A DNA stretch of 12,043 nt from Gemmatimonadota bacterium (lineage in GTDB: Bacteria > Gemmatimonadota > Gemmatimonadetes > Longimicrobiales > Gaopeijiaceae). The notes under the pieces are model-generated. The model searched no databases, was not told where the DNA came from, and saw only the letters and a program-made list of their open reading frames with translations. The DNA is taken from NCBI GenBank assembly GCA_039589315.1, contig JBDHHQ010000142.1:1-12043 (forward strand). Reading direction: 5' to 3'. Positions 1-12,043 of the stretch are shown one piece after another (position 1 is the stretch's first letter; each line of letters starts with the position of its first letter). Position numbers and translations under genes: made by a program.

Positions 1-259
1 CTCCTTTCCGGTTCCGGTCCTGCTCACGCAGGCCTCGGACTCCCGGGTTCATGTGACGATGAACAAGGAGCTTCCTCTTTCTCTTCCGGGCTGTCCACCC
101 CTCCGGACGCCCTCTGGTCGCCACAGTTCGCTTGGCGAGACTCGGCCAAGCGAGGCAGACGCCGGGGTGTGTCAGTCTGCGGGTTGGACCAGGGGTGAAG
201 GCGACGGGGCGGCCAAGGTCTCGCCCCGACCGCCCGCGTCACTCAACCTGCGGTGCCTG

Positions 260-715
260 CTATGCGACGCTGACCGTGATCTGCCGCGGCTTGGCTGCCT
301 CAACCTTCGGCAGCAGGACCGTCAACAGACCCGAATCGAACTTCGCGACGATGTCGTTTGCATCAATCGTCGCCGGCAAGGTGAACGAGCGTTCGAACAT
401 ACCGTAGGTGCGCTCGAACCGGTACACGTTGTCGTCCTGCCGCTCCTCTTCCTTCTTCTCGCCCCGGAGCGTGAGCACGTTGTTCTCCAGCGAGATGCTC
501 ACGTCTTCCGGCTTCACTCCCGGCAGCTCGGCCACGAGGCGGATCGTATCCCGCTCTTCTATGACGTCCACCGGAGGTATCCCGTGCCCGAACAGCGAGC
601 GGTCTTCATCCCGCTGGACCGCGGACTCGAGCATGTGCTCGTAGAGCTGGCCGAGGCGGTTCGGACGACGTGCGTCCAGAACCGGCCACGTGGGATTGAA
701 TCTCGTGATTTGCAT
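260..715 (-). CDS. Hsp20/alpha-crystallin family small heat shock protein
   Basis: 151 aa ORF with typical alpha-crystallin motifs (PPVDVIE, AELPGV..EDVSISLENNVLTLRGEK, ERTYGMFERSFTLP, I.AKFDSGLLTVLLPK). SD-like GGGAGGG at 729-723, 7 nt before the ATG. Confidence 0.96.
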   Translation of the reverse strand: MQITRFNPTWPVLDARRPNRLGQLYEHMLESAVQRDEDRSLFGHGIPPVDVIEERDTIRLVAELPGVKPEDVSISLENNVLTLRGEKKEEERQDDNVYRFERTYGMFERSFTLPATIDANDIVAKFDSGLLTVLLPKVEAAKPRQITVSVA

Positions 716-744
716 GGTCTTACCCTCCCTGGGGTGGGCCGCGC

Positions 745-1062
745 TTACCTGCGCGCGGCCGCTATGTTGTGGAATGTCGAGTTGGACACTTGGTAGGCAC
801 TGAGCTTGGGAGTCCCCTCGACCATGTTGCCCAGACTCTTCAGCACCTGAGGATACGTGTCGCGGCCATACGCATCCGCGTCTTCCTTCCTATCCCACAG
901 GCTGATGGCCACCGCTTCGTTGCGGTCGGCGTCGACGAACGTGATCTCGTCCTTGAAACCGCTCTGCTTGCGCAGCACGGGCAGGACGTCTGTTTCGACC
1001 CTGCGGGTGAAGTCAGCACCCGTTGCGGACCTGAGGTGCATCGTGACGTTTCGAGCGTACAT
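745..1062 (-). CDS. Small ABM (antibiotic biosynthesis monooxygenase)-like dimeric alpha/beta barrel protein, 105 aa
   Basis: ORF 745..1161 re-started at ATG 1062 (MYARNVTMHL...), which has GGGAG at 1073-1069; the longer start would overlap the promoter. Pattern VLPVLRKQSGFKDEITF...AVAISLWDRKEDADAY fits ABM-like folds. Ends 29 bp upstream of hsp20, so probably an operon. Confidence 0.8.
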   Translation of the reverse strand: MYARNVTMHLRSATGADFTRRVETDVLPVLRKQSGFKDEITFVDADRNEAVAISLWDRKEDADAYGRDTYPQVLKSLGNMVEGTPKLSAYQVSNSTFHNIAAARR

Positions 1063-1126
1063 GTGCGACTCCCGTGTGAAACCTACAAGAACCCTGCGAT
1101 GCCTACTGGTGATTTCCAGCTTGCCT

Positions 1127-1155
1127 AACCTAAGTGACTTTACTAAATTTGTCAA
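1127..1155 (-). promoter_or_regulatory. sigma70-type promoter for the ABM-like/hsp20 operon
   Basis: Minus strand reads TTGACA (1155-1150), a 17-nt spacer, then TAGGTT (1132-1127), within an AT-rich intergenic patch. Confidence 0.7.
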
Positions 1156-1228
1156 GTGCAATCCCAGGAAGATTACGCGTCTTTACATCATGAGTTAAGC
1201 ATAGTGAATCCCTTGGTGAGGACCTCCC

Positions 1229-2083
1229 ATGGACGTCTCATTCGCGATTCGAAAGCGGCTCGAGCTGCTGGGCTTCGGGCAAAAGGACCTCGCCCAGGCG
1301 GCTTGTGTGACCGAGTCATACATCTCCCAGTTGCTGACGCGGAAGAAGGCACCTCCGGCGCCGGACCGCACGGACATATATGACCGGATGGACAGCTTCC
1401 TGAAGCTGCCGCCCGGAGAGCTGGCGAGGCTCGCAGACTCCCAGCGGAAGGCCGAATTGAAGCGCCAGCTGGGGGACGAGCCGGCCCCCCTATTCTCCGA
1501 CGTCCGCGCGTTGATCCTGCGTAAATGCCGTCCCGAACGTGAACGAGAGGTCCGCGCGGTGTTCGAGAAGCAGCCCTTCGGCGAGCTCGAGCGCCTCGTG
1601 ACCCAGAAGCTGCTGGACGTCGTGAAGCGCGTGGCTGGCGTGGAGCTGCAGAATGAGCATTGGCTCCGTGACGTGGCGCGCCTGTTCGGCCGCAGCTTCG
1701 AAGAGATGCGCGTGATCGTGCTGGAGTTCCTCGATACCGACATCTTCCACCTGTCGGAGGAGCACTGCGTGTCCTTCCTGGAGCCGCTGATCGTGTCCTG
1801 GGACATCGACCTCGAGACGTTCGGACTCGAAATCGTCCTAGACCATCAGGTCGCTGCAGAACACATGCGACGGTTCGAGTTCCTCGAGCGTGGGCCCGAA
1901 GGCCCGGCCGAAGAGCCAGGGCTCCGCGAATTCCTGCAGGACCCGGCACTGAGCGGCGACGCCACGGCGGAGGAAGTGGAGTTTCTCGAGAAGCTGCGCT
2001 TCCAAGACAAGCGGCCCACGGCGCTCTATTATTACCGCGAGCTCCAGAGTTTGAGGGATCCACTCCACTTCCGAACTGCGTAA
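1229..2083 (+). CDS. XRE-family helix-turn-helix regulator with a long uncharacterised C-terminal region
   Basis: 284 aa; N-terminal HTH (IRKRLELLGFGQKDLAQAACVTESYISQLL). GAGGA SD at 1218-1222. Divergent from the ABM-like gene. Confidence 0.88.
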   Translation: MDVSFAIRKRLELLGFGQKDLAQAACVTESYISQLLTRKKAPPAPDRTDIYDRMDSFLKLPPGELARLADSQRKAELKRQLGDEPAPLFSDVRALILRKCRPEREREVRAVFEKQPFGELERLVTQKLLDVVKRVAGVELQNEHWLRDVARLFGRSFEEMRVIVLEFLDTDIFHLSEEHCVSFLEPLIVSWDIDLETFGLEIVLDHQVAAEHMRRFEFLERGPEGPAEEPGLREFLQDPALSGDATAEEVEFLEKLRFQDKRPTALYYYRELQSLRDPLHFRTA

Positions 2084-2259
2084 CGGCCCGTCATCAGCTT
2101 CGGGTTCGCCGGGGACCCCGCCGTACCGGCGGTGCTGTTCCGCACGTCGCTCGAAGACGATGGTTTCGGGCCGGAGGCGACCACGTCCTTCGACGTTCGA
2201 GAATGAGGGCAGGAGGTCTCCGGCCAGGCGAAGAGGCCGGCCGGGGGTCAGCCGTACCG

Positions 2260-2301
2260 GGACCAAGGTCGAGATCAACGGCCCATCGATCTCCTTGGTC
2301 C
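2260..2301. other. Stem-loop just distal (minus-strand downstream) to the tRNA-like 3' end of the rtT-like repeat; possible terminator
   Basis: GGACCAAG(2260-2267)/CTTGGTCC(2294-2301) plus GAGATC(2271-2276)/GATCTC(2288-2293). No U-tract. Confidence 0.4.
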
Positions 2302-2314
2302 TCGACCGGGAGAA

Positions 2315-2467
2315 CGGAGGGGGCGGGATTGAGCTGCGGGCGGGCTTCGCCCGTCCTCGCTCGTCTCGCGGAGAACCCGACGGACCGCTTGCGCGGACGC
2401 CATTTGGGCCGCTCGGCTCGGACCCGCTCCCGCGATCTTCTGCTAAGATCGCGCGCGGGTTCGAACG
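2315..2467 (-). repeat. rtT-like tRNA-linked structured repeat, copy A
   Basis: On + it begins CGGAGGGGGCGGGATT, the reverse complement of the tRNA-Ser 3' end. It diverges inside the T-loop (GATT-GAG), runs through several hairpins and ends GCGGGTTCGAACG. Homologous to 11871-12008. The layout recalls the tRNA-linked rtT repeats of E. coli tyrT. Confidence 0.65.
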
Positions 2468-2496
2468 TCTTGATCTCGTGCTCGCCCAAGACCTCG

Positions 2497-2584
2497 GAAC
2501 GGCTTGGGTCATAATAACGGAGGGGGGTGGGATTCGAACCGAACGGCTTGGGTCATAATAACGGAGGGGGGTGGGATTCGAACC
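2497..2584. repeat. Exact 44-bp tandem duplication containing the tRNA-Ser 3' end
   Basis: GAACGGCTTGGGTCATAATAACGGAGGGGGGTGGGATTCGAACC at 2497-2540 and 2541-2584. Confidence 0.95.
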
Positions 2585-2614
2585 CGCGTGGGCTTGCGCC
2601 CGCCGGTTTTCAAG
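2562..2614 (-). pseudogene. 3' half of tRNA-Ser(UGA), displaced att remnant 1
   Basis: Minus strand: CTTGAAA (anticodon loop, UGA), ACCGG, C, GGGC-GCAA-GCCC (long variable arm), AC, GCGGG-TTCGAAT-CCCAC, CCCCCTCC, G (G discriminator). The 5' half and CCA are absent. It has one T-stem mismatch and one extra C relative to copy 2. Confidence 0.88.
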
Positions 2615-2750
2615 TTCCGTCAGGTTTTCTGCGTCTGGTTGCGTCTGGTTGTATCTGGCTGCGGGGATTGACCTTTTCGATGTTGTCAGCGGTCGAGGCT
2701 TTGCGTCTGGTTGCGTCTGTTCTCATGGGGCGTTGGCAAAACGTTGGCAA
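2615..2750. repeat. Putative att arm, copy 1 (tyrosine-integrase arm-type and RDF-type repeats)
   Basis: GCGTCTGGTT x2 + GTATCTGGCT (2631-2660), two more decamers (2703-2721), and CGTTGGCAAAACGTTGGCAA (2731-2750). Homologous to 6662-6796; 2621-2667 is identical to 6668-6714. Confidence 0.75.
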
Positions 2751-3031
2751 ACGACGGGTGACGCTGCGCCCGATTACGGGAGCACAAGGAGTACCGCACC
2801 GGACTCGACGCCACGCTGACACGCAACCCACCAGGTCTCCGATGATCCCGGGGCGGTTCATGAGTGCTTAACACGAAGCACCGGAGGACATGCGTATGGT
2901 CCTGCCTCTTCCTCATGCTCGAGTCATCGCCCGGGCTTCCACAACTGCGGCATAGGTGACGTGTGCGCGCGGAGTCTACGGGGTAGCGATCGCCTGGTCG
3001 TCTACGTCGTCTTCGGCGGACGGTCCGGTGA

Positions 3032-3240
3032 ACACGAGAGCTCGACCATCTCGAGGCCCGGGAGGTGGTCGACGGCGAGCGGCATTACCGGCTGGTCCAC
3101 TTCTCGGCGTATCTGGGCGACGCCGACCGTATCGTGCAGCACCTCCGGGCATCGGTGGACGGAGGCTTCTTCAACGCGCCCTACATCGAGCGCGATCTCT
3201 TGCTGGACGGGGTCCGAGACGCGCCGGGCTTCGACGACGG
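3032..3240 (+). pseudogene. C-terminal fragment of a TPR-containing signalling protein
   Basis: Frame of ORF 3065..3289: DGERHYRLVHFSAYLGDADRIVQHLRASVDGGFFNAPYIERDLLLDGVRDAPGF. It resembles the terminal TPR + 'DPLL..LR..P.F' cap of TolB-like/TPR proteins (compare GPEFDLVRDHPRIQAL at the end of the neighbouring cyclase). In-frame stop at 3029 and no N-terminus. Confidence 0.55.
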
Positions 3241-3246
3241 TAGAAC

Positions 3247-3350
3247 ACCACGTAGTACAGAAGACCGGCCGCCTCACCCGAGTCGATGAGCGAGAGGATG
3301 TTCGGGTGGTTGAGCCGCGCCGAGATGCGGATCTCCTGCAGGAAGTGCTC
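3247..3350 (-). pseudogene. Internal fragment of a Hanks-type (Pkn2-like) Ser/Thr kinase, subdomains III-V
   Basis: EHFLQEIRISARLNHPNILSLIDSGEAAGLLYYV inside ORF 3171..3452. No Gly-loop, HRD or DFG motifs nearby. Confidence 0.85.
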
Positions 3351-3528
3351 GCACCGAGCGACTCCCCGATCGACAAGGACAGCGCAGAGGAGGAGGAGGA
3401 TGGACCCGTGAGATCGAGACGAGGTGTCCATCCGACCGCGTCCCTCGATCAATCTGTCCTCCTCTGGCCGGGCAGCGACGGTGAGCGCGATAGGGTTGAA
3501 CCAGCACTCACCCGGCGGCGGCCGTGAG

Positions 3529-5964
3529 TCAAGGATCCTCGGGCAGGACGTGGGCCCGGTCGATCAGCGCCTGAATGCGCGGATGGTCACGAACCAGGTC
3601 GAATTCGGGGCCCATGAGGGTAACCATGGGACGCACACCGGGAACGGAGAACACCCCTTCCATGGCGTCGGCGGCCTCCTCGGCCATACCCAGCTCGGCA
3701 TAGATGATCGAGCTGATCTCGAGCAGATCCCGACCGAAGGTGGGGTCGACTGTGATGGGCAGAATCTCCACCACCCGCTGCGCCTCCCGTATCGCTTCAA
3801 CCCTCCGGCCTAGCGCGGCGTAGGCCCGGCCCAGAGAGGCGTGGATGCGTGGGTCGCCCGGCGCAGCCTCCAGGGCATCGAGGCAGGCGTCCACGGCCCC
3901 CTGGAAGGCCCTTTCTGCCCGGCCCGGGTCGACGATCTTGTACGTCCAACCCTCGAGGAGGTCCCGGGGGGCCCACCAGAAGCCACCGAAGTCCAGCGTC
4001 GGCTGCTCGATTCTCTCCAGCGCCGCGATCTTGGCCTCGGGATCCTCAGTCATCAACCACTCGAAGAACCGCCTGAGTCCGAAGACCTCGACCTGCGGCG
4101 GCACCCTGGCCAGCGCCGCCAGCCCCGCCTCTCCCTCTCCCGTTCGGCGGTAGTTCAGCCACCCCCGGACGAAGGCGGCCTCAAAGAAAGTCGGATGGAC
4201 CTCCATGATGCGGTCGAAGACCACGTTCGCCTCGTCCCATCGTCCCAACTCTGCGTACGCACCGGCCAGATTCATGGCCATTTCGGGATTCATGGGGTCC
4301 AGGAGGGCGGCTCGTTCCCGGACGGCCAACGCAGCGTCCCACTGCCGCTGCCTGAGCAGAAGCTCGCTCTTCAGGGTCAGCACGTTGGCTGAGCCGGGCA
4401 GCCCCGCCTCGGCCACGGCGAGGGCCCGGGTCGCCTCCTCGGTCTCGTAGCGGTGGTAGTGGTAGAAGGCCCTGGCGAGATGGCCCTCTGGGAGCCCTGG
4501 ATTGAGGCGCAGCGCTTCTTCTGCAGCCTCCCGCGCTTGCACCAACCTGGCCTCGGTACGGTCGTACAAGAGGTAGACGAAGCTCTGGGTGATGGACAGC
4601 CAGGCATGGGCCAGGGCAAACTCGGGGTCCGCATCGGTCGCTGCCGTGAACATCGCGGCGGCGAACTCCAGGTCTGCAGGCTCGAACCCTCGCCGGGTGT
4701 GGGCTTCGATTCCCTGAAGGTGCAGCGTGTAGGCGTCCAGGTTCTCCGTGGGCACTTCTGCGATCAGGGCCTGTTCCGCGGGGACCGCCCGGGCCTGAAG
4801 GGCCCGGACGACCTGTTCGGCCAGGTCGCTCTGAATGTCGAATACGTTGGCGACCGTGAACTCCCGGTCGTAGATCTCGGCCCACAGATGTGTGTCCGTC
4901 TCCGCGTCGATGAGCTGAACGTTGAGTCGAACCTGGTCACCTGCACGCATTAGGCTGCCCTCGAGGACCGTCTGCGCACCCAGTTCCCCGCCGATCTCCG
5001 ACACGGTCTTTTCCGTTCCCGCGTACTGCATCACCGATGTGCGGGCGATCACGTCGAGGCTCGCGATCTTGGAGAGCTGGGTCAGGATCTCGTCATGAAG
5101 GCCCGCTGCGAGAAAGGCGGCTTCCCCTTCTTCCTGGGCACTCATGTTGACTAGCGGCAGGACAGCGATGACCGGTCGCTCCGAGGCCGCTGCGGCCGCG
5201 CCTTCCCCGGGGCCGAGGGAATCGACTGCCCGGCTTCCCGATGAGAAGACGGTGTACGCTCCGGCGGTGACGGCCAGCAGGAGGACGATTAGGAGGAGGC
5301 CGGCGCGCTTCTTGATGCGGTCGAGGAAGCGAGCCCCCGTCTGAGCGTGACTGGATTTCGGCCGGCGCGCCCCGTCCATCGGGGCTGTCGCGGCCGAACC
5401 CGGAACGACGCTCCTCCCCTCGGCCTTGGCACGCACGTACTCCTCGGTGGGAACGCTCAGACCCTCGTTGGCGACGGCGAAGACCGGTGTCAGTCGCTCA
5501 ACGTTCTTGAGGCGCACGGCTCCTAGGGGCACCGTTACGAGCTCGGGGTGATTCTTGATCTCGTCGAAGACCTTGTCCGAGATCACCACGCCGCCGGGTG
5601 CAGCGAGCCCCTCGACCCTGGACGCGACGTTCACACCGTCCCCGTACACCCCTTCCTGATCATGGACGATGTCACCGGTATGGACCCCGATTCGCAGCGG
5701 GATCAGCTCTTCATCCCTGAGGTTCGCCTGGATCTCAACTGCGCATTGCACCGCCTCGACGGCGCTGGGGAAGACGCTGAGGGTGCCGTCCCCGTAGTAC
5801 TGGAGGATTTCACCGTGGTGCGCATCCACGGCGGCATTCTGGATGGCTCGGTGCCGATCCCGTTGGACGCGGGCGCCCTCCTCATCCGACTGCATGAGGG
5901 CCGTGTACCCCACCATATCGGCGAACACGATGGCGGCGAGCCGCCGGGTGGGCGCATCTGGCAT
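3529..5964 (-). CDS. Class III nucleotide (adenylate/guanylate) cyclase domain + TM helix + TolB-like domain + TPR repeats
   Basis: 811 aa. Cyclase motifs FADMVGYT, YYGDG, LRIGVHTGD, YGDGVNVASRVE. Hydrophobic helix AGLLLIVLLLAVTAGAYTVF. TolB-like IAVLPLVNMS..GLHDEILTQLSKI..LDVIARTSVMQY..HLWAEIYDR. Many TPR units (e.g. DPEFALAHAWLS, LRLNPGLPEGH). Confidence 0.93.
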   Translation of the reverse strand: MPDAPTRRLAAIVFADMVGYTALMQSDEEGARVQRDRHRAIQNAAVDAHHGEILQYYGDGTLSVFPSAVEAVQCAVEIQANLRDEELIPLRIGVHTGDIVHDQEGVYGDGVNVASRVEGLAAPGGVVISDKVFDEIKNHPELVTVPLGAVRLKNVERLTPVFAVANEGLSVPTEEYVRAKAEGRSVVPGSAATAPMDGARRPKSSHAQTGARFLDRIKKRAGLLLIVLLLAVTAGAYTVFSSGSRAVDSLGPGEGAAAAASERPVIAVLPLVNMSAQEEGEAAFLAAGLHDEILTQLSKIASLDVIARTSVMQYAGTEKTVSEIGGELGAQTVLEGSLMRAGDQVRLNVQLIDAETDTHLWAEIYDREFTVANVFDIQSDLAEQVVRALQARAVPAEQALIAEVPTENLDAYTLHLQGIEAHTRRGFEPADLEFAAAMFTAATDADPEFALAHAWLSITQSFVYLLYDRTEARLVQAREAAEEALRLNPGLPEGHLARAFYHYHRYETEEATRALAVAEAGLPGSANVLTLKSELLLRQRQWDAALAVRERAALLDPMNPEMAMNLAGAYAELGRWDEANVVFDRIMEVHPTFFEAAFVRGWLNYRRTGEGEAGLAALARVPPQVEVFGLRRFFEWLMTEDPEAKIAALERIEQPTLDFGGFWWAPRDLLEGWTYKIVDPGRAERAFQGAVDACLDALEAAPGDPRIHASLGRAYAALGRRVEAIREAQRVVEILPITVDPTFGRDLLEISSIIYAELGMAEEAADAMEGVFSVPGVRPMVTLMGPEFDLVRDHPRIQALIDRAHVLPEDP

Positions 5965-6081
5965 GGGCGGGTGCCCTCGTGGAAACGGGAATGGCTCGAT
6001 GCGGGCACGGAGGGCGATGAAGACCGTCGACCCGTCCCGCCCTCAAAGATGCCGACCCCGATGAGAAAGCGGCAAGGCCAT

Positions 6082-6479
6082 CGAACCTGTCGTTAACCGA
6101 TGACGGGCTTGTCAGTCGCCGTTCGTGAATCCTGAAACGGGATGGTGCCGCAGCCACGGCCCGGGAGCCAAGGAGCGGCTCGTGGCGAAGGGGTGCTGAG
6201 GCGACCGCGCGAAAGCTGCGGGGGTCTGGGTTGGATCCCAACGACCTCCCTTCCCTACAGACTCACGAGGACGCCAATACGTGGCTCGAACGCAAAGGAC
6301 GTGCGGTGGCCACCCGGAAGGTGCCCCACAACGGGGCCCGTGCAGCCATCCAGCCTGTTGAGGCGTGGCTTTGGGCCGAGGGGGAGCGCGTAACGATGTC
6401 GATGATCGACGAGCTAAGGGCGGAGGTCGAGCGGCTAAAGGGGAAGACCGGGAACGGTGCGCCGCTTCGGCTGGGCTAA
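6082..6479 (+). pseudogene. Frameshifted relic of a Cys/His (HGGxSTG-like) N-terminal domain protein with a helical C-terminus; phage/satellite-like
   Basis: Joining frames gives RTCR*..DG/RACQSPFVNPETGWCRSHGPGAKERL/RRGAEATARKLRGSGLDPNDLPSLQTHEDANTWLERKGRAVATRK...IDELRAEVERLKG. One stop and at least two frameshifts. Confidence 0.5.
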
Positions 6480-6589
6480 CGACCAGGAACGTCCCCAGGA
6501 CGTTTGGCGTCGCCGGACGCCTGGCGAACCGCGCTGGGCGGGTAACATCTCCGCCGACCGAACAGGCAGGGGACATTGTCGTAGATGTG

Positions 6590-6599
6590 TAAGTCGTTG
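6590..6599 (-). promoter_or_regulatory. IHF-like core site next to the att core
   Basis: Minus strand CAACGACTTA matches the CAANNNNTTR core of WATCAANNNNTTR, 10 bp from the tRNA-half 3' end. The WAT part does not match. Confidence 0.4.
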
Positions 6600-6609
6600 T
6601 CCCACAAAA

Positions 6610-6661
6610 CGGAGGGGGTGGGATTCGAACCCACGTGTCCTTTCGGACGCCGGTTTTCAAG
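6610..6661 (-). pseudogene. 3' half of tRNA-Ser(UGA), displaced att remnant 2
   Basis: Minus strand: CTTGAAA, ACCGG, C, GTCC-GAAA-GGAC, AC, GTGGG-TTCGAAT-CCCAC, CCCCTCC, G. Perfect T arm and variable arm. The sequence 5' of the anticodon loop is non-tRNA arm DNA. Confidence 0.9.
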
Positions 6662-6796
6662 TTCCCACAGGTTTTCTGCGTCTGGTTGCGTCTGGTTGTA
6701 TCTGGCTGCGGGGACGGGGTTTTCGGGGTTGATCGCGGTCGGGGCTTTGCGTGTGGTTGCGTCTGTTCGCGGCGGGCGTTGGCAAAACGTTGGCAA
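6662..6796. repeat. Putative att arm, copy 2
   Basis: Decamers at 6678-6707 and 6749-6767, CGTTGGCAAAACGTTGGCAA at 6777-6796. Similarity to copy 1 stops abruptly after the last repeat. Confidence 0.75.
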
Positions 6797-6937
6797 GATG
6801 AAGGTGGGACAGCTGCGGGTCCAGCCCCTTCCTGAGTCGCCCCCGCCCACCGCGTCGGCAGCCGTCGCTGAGAGGGTAACCTCCGTGCCAGGCAGACGGC
6901 TGGTCCGCACTGGGCGGCAGGAGCTCCGGTCGGACGA

Positions 6938-6979
6938 CGTTAGGACGCGGTAAGAGTCAGGTTAGAGCCTCTGGGTAAG
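6938..6979 (+). promoter_or_regulatory. Phased direct repeats (C/G)GT(T/A)AG; candidate SARP/OmpR-type winged-helix binding site
   Basis: CGTTAG 6938, GGTAAG 6949, GGTTAG 6960 (11-bp period) and GGTAAG 6974, upstream of the Kelch gene. Confidence 0.45.
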
Positions 6980-7040
6980 CTGGTTCCGAGATCTTTCGAG
7001 GCGCCGCCTTCGACTCGTCGTCCACGCAGGAGGTCTACCC

Positions 7041-8093
7041 GTGTCACCGCCAGCCTTTCACACGACTTCATCTGGGCATCGACATTGCTTCAAGGGGCCG
7101 GCCGCCACCCTCCTGAGTGTGGCTACGTTCGCCATCGCGTTGGCCTGCGCCGGCGATTCGGATGGCACGCCGACCGAGCTGGCGGCGGATCCGCCAGGGG
7201 CGGCCTTCGACGAGCTAGGCACATGGTTCCGAGTGGCGCCGCTCCGGGTGCCGGTGAACGCGGCGGCCGCCGCGGCTTACCGCGGACAGATCTACGTCAC
7301 GGGCGGATACCCAGACTCGCTCAATTCGCCGCCTCCCACCGCCGCCGTCCAGCGATACGATCCAGCCGCAGATCAATGGACACGTCTGAACGACCTACCC
7401 AAGCCAGTAGGCCGCCACACCATGGCGGTGTTCCACGACGAACTGCTCCTGATCGGTGGCAACATCACCCGGGACGAGCGAACGGAGTTCGGAACGGGCT
7501 ACCTGCCCAGCGGTGAGATCCTCGTCTATGATCTAACTTCGGATACCTGGAACGTGTGGGCTCACTTGCCGGAGCCGCGTGTCGGTGCGGAGGCCTTAGT
7601 CGCGGGTGATCAGCTCGCGGTGGTAGCTGGGGTGAGCGCACAGCAAAGAGCACCCTTGGGTGACTCCGTCGTCATCTTCACGGATCGTGAGACCTGGCGC
7701 CACGTCCCTCCTCCACCAGACGGCCTACCCGGGTTCCCCCTGACGGCTGCGACCCGTGATCGGGCATTCGTGGTGACCTCCTCCGTACGCGGACCCCTGT
7801 TTGAGCTCGACCTACCCGTGGGGGCATGGAGTGCCGTTGGCGCAGAGAACCTCAACCTCGACAACCTGGACGAGGGCTTCGGTGTTGCCGGTCGATTCCA
7901 CGCCATCGGTAGGCACAAGCACCGTGCGTGGACCCTGGATACCCAATCGTGGGCATCGCTTCCACCGGCCCCGGAACACCGCCTTGGGGTTGCCCTGGCC
8001 GCAATCGGCGACAGCCTGTTCGTCGTTGGGGGCGGCGACGAGCGCAGCAACCGTTCAGTCGCGACCGTGGACGTATACGTGCCGCCACGGTGA
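7041..8093 (+). CDS. Kelch-repeat beta-propeller protein, probable lipoprotein
   Basis: 350 aa; AGGAGGT SD (7028-7034) before the GTG. Kelch motifs IYVTGG..VQRYDPAADQW, LLLIGG..YDLTSDTW, LFVVGG. Hydrophobic stretch ending in ALA-C. Confidence 0.9.
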   Translation: MSPPAFHTTSSGHRHCFKGPAATLLSVATFAIALACAGDSDGTPTELAADPPGAAFDELGTWFRVAPLRVPVNAAAAAAYRGQIYVTGGYPDSLNSPPPTAAVQRYDPAADQWTRLNDLPKPVGRHTMAVFHDELLLIGGNITRDERTEFGTGYLPSGEILVYDLTSDTWNVWAHLPEPRVGAEALVAGDQLAVVAGVSAQQRAPLGDSVVIFTDRETWRHVPPPPDGLPGFPLTAATRDRAFVVTSSVRGPLFELDLPVGAWSAVGAENLNLDNLDEGFGVAGRFHAIGRHKHRAWTLDTQSWASLPPAPEHRLGVALAAIGDSLFVVGGGDERSNRSVATVDVYVPPR

Positions 8094-8116
8094 TGTCCCG
8101 TCGCCACCCCATGCGT

Positions 8117-8944
8117 CTAGGGTGTGATGGTATCGAGAATGGTCATCGCAAAGCTGGCCACCCAGACCGATCCCTCCTCACCCGGCGCTGCGTCGCCGAC
8201 ACGGAACAAGTTGACTTGGTCGTCCACTCCGGGGCAGGCCACAGCATCGACCAGGGCGGGATCGTTCGTGAGTCTCCACGCGGACCCATCGTAGCTGATG
8301 CAGAAGCCGTTGTCCGTGATTCCGGTTCCGGTTCGGGCCTCGTCGAAGATGAGCCGCCACCTCCATGTGGTCTGCTGGTCGTCGAAGGCCGTAAGGACGA
8401 TTTTGCCACCGTCGCTCAACACGTCACCGGGGGACATGGCGATCAGCGATGCCTCACTGCTGCGCGTCTGGAAGTGGATCGCTGTGCAGAGCGGATCGCC
8501 GCCTGGTGTCACGCCGCTGACGGCTTGAAACTCGGTCCAGTGGTCCGGGCTCAGAACAGTGGCATCGGCCGGGAAATGGACGCACACGTCACGAGCAGCA
8601 TCCTCTTCGACGATGAGTTGGTAGCGATCGTTCAGGGTGGAGGTGAGCGCGCCGTTGTTCCTCTTCTTGCGGATGGTGGTGTACTCACCGAGTCCGTCAC
8701 CCGTGACGCCGTATCCTGAGGCGAGCAAGGTGGTCACGTCACCGCCGGGAAACGAACCGTCGTCGTCTCCGCCGCACTTGGGGTGCGACGGATCGGTCGT
8801 GCAATCCGGCTTTCCGAACTGGGCAGTCAGCCCCGTCGGATTGCTGTCCGACGCAGTTCCGTCGCAGCCCATGGCAACGACGATAAGACTAAGCGCCACA
8901 ACAAGCGTGTCGAACCTGTGGGGCCTCCGAAGTTGCGTCATCAT
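8117..8944 (-). CDS. Hypothetical secreted protein, probable lipoprotein
   Basis: 275 aa; GGGAGGT SD at 8955-8949. Basic N-terminus + LVVALSLIVVAMG-C lipobox-like signal. KPDCTTDPSHPKC mini-motif and six further Cys after the lipobox Cys. Confidence 0.78.
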   Translation of the reverse strand: MMTQLRRPHRFDTLVVALSLIVVAMGCDGTASDSNPTGLTAQFGKPDCTTDPSHPKCGGDDDGSFPGGDVTTLLASGYGVTGDGLGEYTTIRKKRNNGALTSTLNDRYQLIVEEDAARDVCVHFPADATVLSPDHWTEFQAVSGVTPGGDPLCTAIHFQTRSSEASLIAMSPGDVLSDGGKIVLTAFDDQQTTWRWRLIFDEARTGTGITDNGFCISYDGSAWRLTNDPALVDAVACPGVDDQVNLFRVGDAAPGEEGSVWVASFAMTILDTITP

Positions 8945-9067
8945 GCCGACCTCCCGGTGTGTACTTCAATCACTCGTTTCAGCGGTGTTGTTGGCCAATC
9001 CCGCTCTTCCGCTACTATCTTGGCCGGGGCCCCTCACTCCGGTCTTACCTAGGTCTGTCGGCAGGTC

Positions 9068-11716
9068 ATGATGCAGTTGTCCTCACCCTCCACCCCCACG
9101 CTGCGGACGCTCGGTAGCATCGAACTGATAGGACCGGACGCCCGGTCCGCGGCCGCGATCATCTCGCAACCGAAGCGGCTTGCACTACTGGTCATTCTCG
9201 CCGCCGAAAGCGGACTGGTCCGTCGAGACCGCCTGCTGCCGCTGCTCTGGCCCGAGCTCAGTGAGCCCCGGGCTCGCGCGGCCCTCAGCACCTCCCTGTC
9301 CTACCTGAGGCGCTTTCTCGGCGATGGTGTGATCACCAACCGTGGAGCCCAGGAGGTCGGGGTGGACCCCCGCTCGCTTCAACTGGACGTGAACCTGTTC
9401 CAGGCGGCACTTGCCGAGGGACGAGACGCCGACGCGGTAGAGCTCTGCCGGGGAGAGTTCCTTCCCGGGCTACATCTTTCGGCGAACGGTGCGTTCGCTG
9501 AGTGGCTGGACGATCGCCGACGTGGATTGAAGGCTGACGTCGTGGCCGCCTCCAAGCGTTGGGCCCATACCTGTCGCTCGGCCGGCGACAAGACCGGCGA
9601 GGAGGCCGCCATCCGCGGAATCCTGTCTCTCGCTCCTTACGACGAAGGAGCGATTGGCGAGTTGGTTCGACTGATGGCCGCTCGCGGAGATCGCGCTGGC
9701 GCGCTGGTCGAGCTCGATGCCTTCGCCGCCCGGATGCTCGCTGATTTGGACCTGGAGGTCTCTAGCGAGCTGGCGGCGGTCGCTGACCTGATCCGGAACT
9801 CGAACGCCACTGGGGGCGCTGGAGAGGTCCCCGACCGCGGCTCTCAACGAGCGGAGATGGGTGTGGAGCTGGCGCGTGAAGCCGCGGCCGCTGAGGCGCT
9901 TGGACTGCCCAGCCACTCCACCACCGCGGACCGCCCGATCTCGGAACGTGTAGTCTCGAATCACCGGTCCGCCTTACTGTGGACAGCTGTCGCGGCAGTG
10001 ATTGTTACTGTCCTAGCACTGAACTGGGGTGGGTCAGGCTCGCCGCCGCCTTCGCGTCCCGTCGTTATCGTTGTGCCCCTGGCTAACGAGACCGGTGATC
10101 CAGAGCTAGATGTCGTGGGGCGCGTAGCGGCGGACTGGATTACCACAGGACTCTCCCGGACCACGCTTGCCGACGTGATATCCCAGTTTACGCTTCTGGG
10201 CCGAAGCCTCGGATACGAGGAGAACCCGCCTGGAGCCCGGAGCCCCACACCCATTGACCTGGCCCGGGACTACCGGGCCACACACCTGATTTCGGGGAGC
10301 TTCCGGCCGAACGGTGAGGAGCTTGTTTTTCAGGCGACCGTGACGCACGTCCCGTCAAGCGCAGTCGTCCGTGCCGTGGATGGCATCATGGGTCCTCGGG
10401 ACGATCCCTTGGAAGCAGTGGACGCACTCGGGAGGCGCATCACGGGCGCATTGGGCACTGCGATCGACGAGCGACTCGAGAGTTGGTCTCACCTGACCGG
10501 TAGGCCGCCAACGTTCGACGCATATCGACTGTTTGCGCGTGCAATGGACTTGTTCACACGGGCGCCGAACGCCGCGGCTAGGCTCCCCGCCGCCCAGCTT
10601 TTCGCCGCCGCTGCGGAGGCGGATTCTACCTTCGTCATGGCTCAGATCTGGCAGGCCTTCGCTCTCGCCGCGGAACCCGAGGCACGCAAATCGGTCCTCG
10701 CTGCGATCCTGGCACGGCATGATCTGACCGCATTCGAGGAAGCTGTGGCCCGCCATCAATGGGCGGGAATGCACGAACATCCTCGAGAGTGGTATGCGTG
10801 GACCCGACGAATCGTCGATATGGCACCCGAGACGGAATGGCGATACAAGCTGGCTTTGGCCGCGCGGTGGGCTGGGTATCCGGCCGAAGCCGCGTCCGTC
10901 CTGGAACAGGTTCAACCCGAAGGCTGGCTGGCCGGAGGCTGGGGTGAGGTAACCGTTCGAGATGTGCTGGGTCTGTCGTACTTGAACCTCGGCCGGTTCG
11001 ACGACGTCTGGGATTTGTATCGCGAACGCCCGGTGCGCCCTGAGGACCATGATGCTTATCTGCCAGCGTACACTGCCGCGGCTCAGGGGGATTCGGCCCG
11101 TTTGGGCCAGTGGCTACATCAATACGATCGGTGGCTTGCCGAGGATCGCATCGACATCGCCCGGGTGGCTGGCATTCGCACGTCGGTAGCACAAGTAGCG
11201 AACGTGGTCGGGCATGCTGTACTGGCCGAGGAGCAACGACGTGCCAACCGGGACTGGTTCGAGGCTTGGCTAGCGAACGAGAACCAACACTGGCCGGATC
11301 TCCAAGGTCGGATCCTGTACGAGGCCGGTGAATACGATCTAGCAGGTAGCAAGCTGGAGGAGGCTTACTGCGTCGGAAAGTCGCCCGAGGGACGAGAGTG
11401 CTGGCTGTGGCGTGGTCTTATCGCTGCCAAGCACTCTGACGAGTCAACCGCCCGAGCGGCCCTGGGCCAACTCGAATACATCAACGAGGTCGACGGCCTG
11501 AGGGACCGAGCTCGGATCCGCGTCGCGCTGGGGGAGGTGAGCGAGGCCCGGGCGCTGCTGCATCGCTACTTGTCGGAGGGGGGAAAGGGAGTCGGATTCC
11601 AGAGTCCTGAGTGGCGCCCTCTCTGGCCTTCCGCCCCCTTCGAGCCCGAACCTGGGTTCGAGCGGCCCATGGACGCTTGGACGGCTTGGATCCTTCAAAT
11701 GCGCCGGGGTCTGTAG
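9068..11716 (+). CDS. SARP-like (winged helix + BTAD) regulator with TM helix, TolB-like domain and TPR region
   Basis: 882 aa. LRTLGSIEL..QPKRLALLVILA..RRDRLLPLLWPE..ARAALSTSLSYLRR (wHTH). DVNLFQAAL..AVELCRGEFLPG..FAEWLD..APYDE..GDRAGAL (BTAD). TM ALLWTAVAAVIVTVLAL. VVPLANETGDPELD..AADWITTGL (TolB-like). TPR-like helices follow. Confidence 0.92.
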   Translation: MMQLSSPSTPTLRTLGSIELIGPDARSAAAIISQPKRLALLVILAAESGLVRRDRLLPLLWPELSEPRARAALSTSLSYLRRFLGDGVITNRGAQEVGVDPRSLQLDVNLFQAALAEGRDADAVELCRGEFLPGLHLSANGAFAEWLDDRRRGLKADVVAASKRWAHTCRSAGDKTGEEAAIRGILSLAPYDEGAIGELVRLMAARGDRAGALVELDAFAARMLADLDLEVSSELAAVADLIRNSNATGGAGEVPDRGSQRAEMGVELAREAAAAEALGLPSHSTTADRPISERVVSNHRSALLWTAVAAVIVTVLALNWGGSGSPPPSRPVVIVVPLANETGDPELDVVGRVAADWITTGLSRTTLADVISQFTLLGRSLGYEENPPGARSPTPIDLARDYRATHLISGSFRPNGEELVFQATVTHVPSSAVVRAVDGIMGPRDDPLEAVDALGRRITGALGTAIDERLESWSHLTGRPPTFDAYRLFARAMDLFTRAPNAAARLPAAQLFAAAAEADSTFVMAQIWQAFALAAEPEARKSVLAAILARHDLTAFEEAVARHQWAGMHEHPREWYAWTRRIVDMAPETEWRYKLALAARWAGYPAEAASVLEQVQPEGWLAGGWGEVTVRDVLGLSYLNLGRFDDVWDLYRERPVRPEDHDAYLPAYTAAAQGDSARLGQWLHQYDRWLAEDRIDIARVAGIRTSVAQVANVVGHAVLAEEQRRANRDWFEAWLANENQHWPDLQGRILYEAGEYDLAGSKLEEAYCVGKSPEGRECWLWRGLIAAKHSDESTARAALGQLEYINEVDGLRDRARIRVALGEVSEARALLHRYLSEGGKGVGFQSPEWRPLWPSAPFEPEPGFERPMDAWTAWILQMRRGL

Positions 11717-11870
11717 ACTCCGAGCGAATCTGGCCACGCGCTACAGTCCGACGCGCGCTCTTCCCACCTTTGATCTCGTCTTCATCGTTGCCGCCGGCCG
11801 CACGGCTCCACGGCACTCGGGCCGCGGCGCCTCCTCAGACAATACTTGGAGGTCCTGTAGCGCCTTGAGC

Positions 11871-12008
11871 GTGGGATTGAGCTGCGGTCGCTCTGCGCTC
11901 CTCGCTCGTCGCGCGGAGCTTCTGGGTCGCATACGCGGACGATCATCTCGGCCGCTCGGCTCGACCCCACTTCGCGCTCTGCTTCGCAGATCGCCGTGGG
12001 TTCGAACG
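11871..12008 (-). repeat. rtT-like tRNA-linked structured repeat, copy B
   Basis: Shares blocks with copy A: GGGATTGAGCTGCGG, TCCTCGCTCGTC.CGCGGAG, CGCGGACG, GGCCGCTCGGCTCG, AGATCGC, GGGTTCGAACG. Lacks the acceptor-like CGGAGGGG part. Confidence 0.65.
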
Positions 12009-12043
12009 CGGTGATCGATGGGCGCTTGAACCCTGGGAACGCC

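Follow-up and report, generated by a model that had tools for sequence, protein, structure and literature searches.

Integrase-less gene units stacked at tRNA-Ser(UGA) in a Gemmatimonadota bacterium point to probable delivery by transient phage-satellite-like islands

How do genes come to be stacked behind a tRNA gene when none of them encodes a recombinase? The question is raised by a 12,043-nt stretch of DNA (the window), which is the entire contig C142 (JBDHHQ010000142.1) of a Gemmatimonadota bacterium of the Gaopeijiaceae (GCA_039589315.1; here G000 or the own genome, other G numbers denoting compared genomes). An earlier note, made from the sequence alone, had proposed that a module recurring at 2562–2750 and 6610–6796 delimits integron-like gene cassettes moved in trans by a shared integrase. 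The recurrence itself is borne out: the two modules are 86.8% identical over 189 nt (E 3e-58), contain the previously noted 47-nt identical run and form direct repeats of 101 nt (92%) and 77 nt (86%) with spacings of 4047/4046 nt. The modules belong to a larger array of integrase-less units at tRNA-Ser(UGA), which were probably delivered in cis by transient phage-satellite-like islands rather than moved in trans.

On the minus strand, each module begins with an arm of 136 nt (module 1) or 135 nt (module 2), which ends exactly at the 7-nt anticodon loop, as first described; the 3′ half of tRNA-Ser(UGA) follows. The arm of module 1 comprises an arm-type repeat pair (2732–2750), of the same type as beside an integrase in genomes G276 and G438, and two blocks of 10-nt-phased repeats representing putative excisionase sites; the 3′ half of module 1 differs from the other copy in its variable arm. 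An interpretation of the modules as attR/attI-type junctions of an anticodon-loop tyrosine integrase is supported. A structured-RNA reading is without support from Rfam, no family of which reached its cut-off. Beyond the two modules, the earlier note had overlooked a third tRNA 3′ end (2315–2330) and two hairpin elements.

Across the eight full arms of the own genome, mean pairwise identity amounts to 95% in the arm-type repeats and to 95% and 96% in the phased-repeat blocks, as against 74% and 60% for the spacers and, deeper in the cargo, 47% and 37%. The arm measures, up to the core, 135–136 nt in seven of these eight copies and 146 nt in the remaining one, which carries an extra 10-mer; changes in arm length correspond to whole 10-mers. 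Such a pattern shows divergence of the arms to have taken place while they were functional. Present function does not follow from it, and is called into question by the occurrence of truncated arms, of mutated cores and of at least five 3′ halves with a hairpin inserted in the T-loop. The earlier impression that the arms are better conserved than decayed surroundings stands for the motifs (95–96% vs. 60–74% in spacers), but only in part for the decay: the four main cargo open reading frames (ORFs) of the window are open and apparently full length, a single kinase-type fragment near 3170–3360 being broken.

The arm of the window was compared by BLAST with the own genome (6.67 Mb in 288 contigs, 67% G+C, 95% complete, 5% contaminated), which revealed ~13 arm-bearing copies, whole or decayed: two on C142, one each on C184, C1 and C93, and eight on C27. 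C1 carries the sole intact tRNA-Ser(UGA), behind which comes a unit of 3028 nt that has the same arm and a single sulfatase gene. On C27, seven modules share one orientation and bound units of 1.3–8.4 kb, counted from a 3′ half with another arm type and with approximate positions where decayed. To the right of the window, where the earlier note had suggested looking for the intact tRNA and an integrase, C184 contributes a further 5.3-kb integrase-less unit. This contig is joined to the right end of the window in G452, a second assembly with near-identical contigs that is not independent biological evidence, so that a single contig carries three modules at spacings of 5504 and 4047 nt. The second block of the window, given before as more than 5.3 kb and integrase-less, keeps the latter property and measures ~5.5 kb from core to core.

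Because the assembly is fragmented, it may have missed an integrase, and the number of copies may combine several strains. The last 84 nt of the window are identical to both ends of C184; in C184 itself (L007), positions 1–84 equal 5301–5384, as would be expected of a circle or a tandem copy, and no other predecessor exists among the contig ends. Its core is mutated, as are those of two C27 modules. G452 holds window positions 1–2540 as a separate contig lacking the 44-nt duplication listed in Table 1, probably a contig-joining artefact at a graph junction, and small indels separate the two assemblies. Position 2540 is reached from the C1 unit as well as from the 4047-nt unit, with an overlap of 114 nt, the usual contig overlap in this assembly (188/218). 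Either two strains differ in their last unit or the 2.5-kb segment is present twice; that two units meet identical downstream DNA hints at a recent change. Contigs C104, C168 and C209 of G452 are almost identical to G000 contigs, yet G452 is labelled as another genus, and its neighbouring housekeeping genes are only 67% alike; mis-binning in one of the two is likely. Relative to G452, the intact tRNA of G000 (C1:164791–164868) is short of 8 nt in its variable arm, probably an assembly error.

Comparison sets comprised 314 genomes of the family and 301 of the order; the unpublished G037 and G056 count only in the tallies of the relatives and order searches, and no claim depends on either. Both ends are visible in 17 units, 11 in the own genome and the others in G022, G218, G409, G440, G450 and G276, with one-ended copies (C93, C27:6161, G001, G035, G273, G438:C19, G431 and others) left out. 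Sixteen of the 17, spanning 1.3–8.4 kb, are without a cognate integrase, in line with the earlier picture of small arm-closed units, and cargo varies among relatives, again as anticipated. Units hold 1–8 genes on both strands. In five genomes (G000, G022, G409, G218 and G450) an integrase-less unit directly adjoins the intact tRNA. The exact junction pattern was matched in 15/314 genomes, with seven matches in G000 and no more than two in any other except G452; some of these matches carry other arms. A loose repeat pattern matched 61/314 genomes at a rate similar to that of the control and served as a lead list only, while scans with the arm pattern returned 0 loci in metagenome contigs and 0 in viral contigs.

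Which enzyme do these arms belong to? In G276 and G438, tRNA-Ser(UGA) is followed 66–67 nt on by the window-type repeat pair and then by a tyrosine integrase of 395–398 aa; the two integrases are 78% identical and preceded by the same left arm (P′). The G276 island is whole and extends over 15.7 kb, in the order tRNA-Ser(UGA), P′ repeats, 398-aa integrase, helix-turn-helix (HTH) protein, terS, primase fragment, DUF3987 helicase, excisionase, cargo, right arm (P), core and 3′ half, with ~136 nt of arm up to the core. Integrase, regulator, excisionase, primase/helicase, small terminase and its form as a tRNA island of 10–20 kb are features of satellites. By gene content, the island appears phage-satellite-like, comparable to phage-inducible chromosomal islands (PICIs) or tycheposons, and in this single example no relaxase or secretion-system family was detected among 16 ORFs (PHROGs; 11 also Pfam). 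The earlier note had reasoned that arms always flanking integrase-bearing islands would mark the units as eroded copies, and this full satellite goes part of the way in that direction.

The window-type repeat was found beside two Ser(UGA) integrases and one Cys integrase, and other repeats beside more distant integrases and beside the family shared by C27 and G010. More distant members of the cognate integrase family were detected in 30/314 family genomes (E ≤ 1e-15, with five candidates per genome scored); they are located at Lys, Cys, Leu and Gln tRNAs and mostly have different repeats. As arm and integrase co-vary, their pairing is well supported, and the comparison of sequences makes a strong case that the arm and the G276/G438-type integrase are a cognate pair.

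This integrase was not found in G000, G001, G022 or G452, where the best matches reached E 2e-7 to 3e-5 at 28–37% identity, and 25 proteins tested from the two parent islands had no match on the array contigs at E ≤ 1e-3; among viral contigs, the cognate integrase had one match only, at 29%. Within the window, Pfam identified no recombinase in 11/11 ORFs tested, and translated searches with ten own PF00589 ORFs, a second integrase family profile and the cognate integrase had no match on the contig, so the cargo blocks show no recognisable recombinase, as the earlier note had held. Its shared integrase acting in trans finds no such backing. The sole module-adjacent integrase, on C27, belongs to another arm family and is broken: ~110 N-terminal residues present in its G010 relative are missing, the reading frame runs without a stop through the att site, and the other arm repeat stands at its end. 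This integrase family was found in 5/301 order genomes. Integrases on C93, C119 and C68 were rejected as partners, being placed at Ile, Val and Pro halves. G218, G251 and G428 (L039, L041 and L118) show the usual arrangement mirrored, with a broken C27/G010-family integrase located 5′ of tRNA-Ser(UGA) and directed towards it.

The units are asymmetric with regard to the left arm. The two-repeat cognate P′ is present in none of the own flanks listed, and the 4047-nt unit starts with the P′ of the other integrase family, so that its ends mismatch. This P′ stops after the first of its two arm repeats, and in six units P′ ends at that same point. Directly behind the P′ repeats of G409 and G455 comes a small satellite gene; in G438 and G276 this gene is preceded by a repeat pair of its own, which suggests that the integrase module was deleted between repeats in the former two. 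G273, with a P′ and an integrase fragment, represents erosion in progress, as do truncated arms on C27; ahead of this P′, with its integrase fragment and insertion sequence elements, sits a second, unrelated satellite-like element with its own integrase at tRNA-Ser(UGA) (L120:512–10780). In lambda-type systems, the excised circle needs both P and P′. Window units without a cognate P′ could thus form no full attP circle, and together with the missing enzyme this argues against movement in trans and for delivery in cis.

We therefore favor, at a probability of about 0.58, cis-delivery by transient satellites, an accretion of the kind proposed for cis-mobilizable elements (CIMEs) and tycheposons, followed by shuffling of the arms. 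The module would be the right-hand attachment site of a satellite family (P arm plus anticodon-loop core) joined to a displaced 3′ half, the satellite's tyrosine integrase crossing over in the anticodon loop of tRNA-Ser(UGA). Units would lose left arm, integrase and satellite core and keep cargo and right arm. A satellite arriving at the restored tRNA would then supply attL and enzyme; with the P-only unit acting as a distal attR, excision from the satellite's attL could carry the stranded unit along in cis, and following transfer, the satellite alone would excise precisely, so that a clean unit without integrase remained next to the tRNA. The right arm would stay under selection while the left became dispensable, and repeats would exchange arms among themselves. 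Such a scheme explains why the right arm was kept and the left arm lost, and why satellite remnants are lacking. Confidence is moderate for cis-delivery and its timing and likewise moderate for arm exchange, both being inferred.

The shuffling is illustrated by three pairs with a common right side and different arms. The first consists of window position 2614 and C1, the second of C93 and C27:6161 (3′ half 100%, downstream 96%, arm 85%); both are what a crossover at the core yields. The third, two tandem C27 units with upstream DNA 89%, downstream DNA 95–98% and arms 75% identical, suggests arm exchange.

Several observations weigh against cis-delivery. The G276 arm shares only 46–51% column identity with the own arms and is therefore a cousin, not the direct donor, and no tandem of a satellite and an integrase-less unit with this arm type was observed. 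G425, G440 and G456 keep a whole cognate P′ without an integrase behind it, and G409 keeps both arms without one, which fits movement in trans in those genomes. Satellite remnants are almost wholly absent from 11 units, which might never have been satellites in the first place, and fragmentation and contamination (288 contigs, 5%) may hide an integrase or mix strains.

The units might also be a graveyard, namely eroded stumps of independent satellites that have not moved since, their arms conserved from an autonomous phase. Arms decaying in series on C27 and C66, the mutated cores of C184 and two C27 modules, the mismatched ends of the 4047-nt unit and the missing enzyme would all suit this, as would the T-loop insertions, which would break the tRNA on re-integration. 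We nevertheless consider it unlikely, because the array contigs are without satellite gene remnants, five genomes have an already minimal unit adjoining the intact tRNA, two different units meet identical downstream DNA, and arms differ between tandem units otherwise 89–98% identical. That assembly or binning merged the alternative islands of several strains into an inflated array seems scarcely credible. It could draw on the graph junction at 2540, the 44-nt artefact, the indels between assemblies, the recurrence of the contigs in G452 under another genus label and the 5% contamination, but leaves unexplained three modules on one G452 contig, seven in one orientation on C27, copies differing by 10–25% and the same design in G022, G409, G440 and G450.

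Two further alternatives let units move singly. Non-autonomous cassettes could leave as attP circles and be inserted again with an integrase supplied in trans; small units, conserved arms and varied cargo are in keeping with this, as are the G409 unit and the 84-nt terminal repeat of C184. Given that the window units have no cognate P′, that no cognate integrase was found in the four genomes searched, and that C184 has a mutated core and continues into the window in G452, we regard this as improbable. Somewhat more improbable still, an attR-only circle (P arm, core and 3′ half) could recombine with the attL of a resident satellite and exit by attB × attP, a visiting satellite with integrase and excisionase serving as a temporary integron platform. 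Phased repeats are needed for the excisive reaction in lambda-type systems, and here they are as conserved as the arm-type repeats, while P′ is dispensable in the units; yet no G000 junction combines a whole P arm with a whole cognate P′, and no circle was seen.

The features of the window are collected in Table 1.

Table 1. Attachment-site, cargo and assembly features of the window
Feature	Position	Strand	Remarks
Second hairpin element	2315–2475	−	Ends in tRNA 3′ end copy 2315–2330; hairpin 2325–2475
Tandem duplication, 44 nt	2497–2584		Graph junction; absent from G452
Displaced tRNA-Ser(UGA) 3′ half, module 1	2562–2614	−	Anticodon loop 2608–2614, putative crossover core
P arm, module 1	2615–2750	−	Arm-type direct repeat pair, phased repeats, variable spacers
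Cargo of 4047-nt unit	2751–6609		Without recombinase
Broken gene fragment	3171–3452	−	Long paralogs elsewhere in genome
811-aa adenylate/guanylate-cyclase-domain and TPR protein	3529–5964	−	Pfam; main cargo of 4047-nt unit
82-aa ORF	6231–6479	+	Only relative is its own copy
Left (P′) arm of 4047-nt unit	6520–6609	−	C27/G010-type integrase family, other than cognate
tRNA-Ser(UGA) 3′ half, module 2	6610–6661	−	Anticodon loop 6655–6661
P arm, module 2	6662–6796	−	135 nt
Kelch-repeat protein, cargo of 5.5-kb unit	7041–8093	+	Pfam
275-aa protein	8117–8944	−	No Pfam family; lipoprotein-like N-terminus, by sequence
882-aa BTAD-type regulator	9068–11716	+	Weak Pfam match (E 0.007)
Hairpin element, T-loop-associated family	11871–12043	−	Last 84 nt equal the C184 ends

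The 811-aa cyclase/TPR protein has 76 related frames in the own genome. Its closest relatives, at seven loci in other genomes, have no arm or tRNA piece nearby, so that this cargo is no fixed cassette. The broken fragment, a putative kinase-type gene, has no Pfam match and is 76% identical over 38 aa to an 890-aa frame on C21. For the 82-aa ORF, an integrase or satellite remnant was considered and found no support in the searches run, which covered near lengths only. The 882-aa regulator is 34% identical to a BTAD protein of the next unit on C184. Past the last tRNA 3′ end, positions 260–2083 encode Hsp20, a 105-aa protein and a 284-aa HTH protein without a paralog in the genome; this 2.5-kb block at the start of the window may itself be a unit.

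Hairpin elements of 100–130 nt recur in or just behind the T-loop of tRNA-Ser copies, re-copying the tRNA 3′ end. They are also present on C27, C184 and C68 of G000 and at L110:9080–9734, with five tandem copies in G440, and we know of no enzyme for them. The G409 unit with both arms (L065:14677–17127) carries a LanC/kinase gene resembling class III lanthipeptide synthetases. Junctions of arm, core and 3′ half exist at other tRNAs of G000 as well: three Lys modules on C72 (17347, 24762 and 28138; tRNA-Lys at 47829–47901) share one arm, and others involve Val (C119, C207, C46 and C39), Pro (C42 and C151), Ala (C11 and C118) and Ile (C93:18986).

Published accretion systems provide the closest parallels. 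CIMEs of the ICESt1/ICESt3 family undergo accretion-mobilisation and measure 1.2–13 kb (PMC7563491, PMC5704250). Like them, the units are att-bounded, free of recombination genes, stacked at one target and would move only with an incoming element; they contain no integrase or transfer genes and appear to retain attR, in that arm, core and 3′ half are complete, the length is fixed and the motifs are conserved. Unlike CIMEs, they lack the cognate left arm, only core and 3′ half remaining of attL, and their likely helper is a phage-satellite-like island, not an integrative and conjugative element (ICE) or integrative and mobilizable element (IME), the only whole parent found, a single example, carrying satellite genes. 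The units would thus work like CIMEs but depart from them in two features, cognate attL and ICE/IME origin. At least three consecutive units lie on one path here and seven modules on C27, compared with the two or three elements of composites in Streptococcus salivarius. In Dehalococcoides, more than 12 target repeats stand behind one ssrA gene with a motif beside each, and 15 islands without an integration module were proposed to be cis-mobilizable (PMC3146451). The integrase-less tandem islands and the conserved motif by each repeat recur in our array; there, however, a serine recombinase acts at the tmRNA T-loop, here a tyrosine integrase at the anticodon loop, and 16 Dehalococcoides islands kept the integration module, which none of the own units does.

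In Prochlorococcus, tycheposons are transient satellite-like elements that visit tRNA genes including Ser-UGA; on excising precisely, they have been proposed to leave behind DNA that they had captured (10.1101/2020.12.28.424599). Their leftovers are described without clear boundaries, whereas every unit here is closed by a conserved 136-nt arm. The cis-accretion model itself is in print for CIMEs (PMC7563491, PMC5704250) and tycheposons (10.1101/2020.12.28.424599). Islander catalogs tRNA islands with a tRNA, a displaced 3′ fragment and a tyrosine integrase at an anticodon-centred site A, a signature that the G276 island fits; candidates without an integrase are discarded, so that the own units would go unlisted (PMC4383910). 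Among tandem arrays in the Islander sense, each member of ours has its own tDNA fragment, but not its own integrase. A literature search that covered few subscription papers returned nothing on this array or on Gemmatimonadota satellites.

Integrons have a resident IntI beside attI, and attC sites whose inverted repeats fold as single-strand hairpins; their cassettes are mostly single promoterless ORFs in one orientation. The array resembles them in being a polar stack, with small gene units of varied content sharing one entry point, which is as far as the integron-like label of the earlier note carries. It differs in its double-stranded arm-type sites and multi-gene units in both orientations, and its junctions are direct-repeat arms with a tRNA half, not attC hairpins. 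On C1, the stretch from the tRNA to the first arm contains no integrase, and neither does the window, no IntI-specific profile having been run. The array is not an integron.

It is, rather, a variant of known tRNA-anchored accretion, an extreme case with an identified parent integrase. While the general process was already known, a stack of integrase-less units can here be tied to an identified satellite integrase, and the asymmetry of a kept right arm and a lost left arm separates cis-delivery from movement in trans. On a bolder view, which we hold doubtful, right-arm-only units would be an actively maintained gene-collection system of this lineage, to which visiting satellites lend integrase, excisionase and left arm; units would enter and leave singly, also as attR circles recombining with a resident attL, and swap arms, at several tRNAs per genome. 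If true, the system would be analogous to an integron whose platform is transient and borrowed. Island finders that require an integrase miss such units, so that this route of gene gain is probably under-counted in a little-studied phylum.

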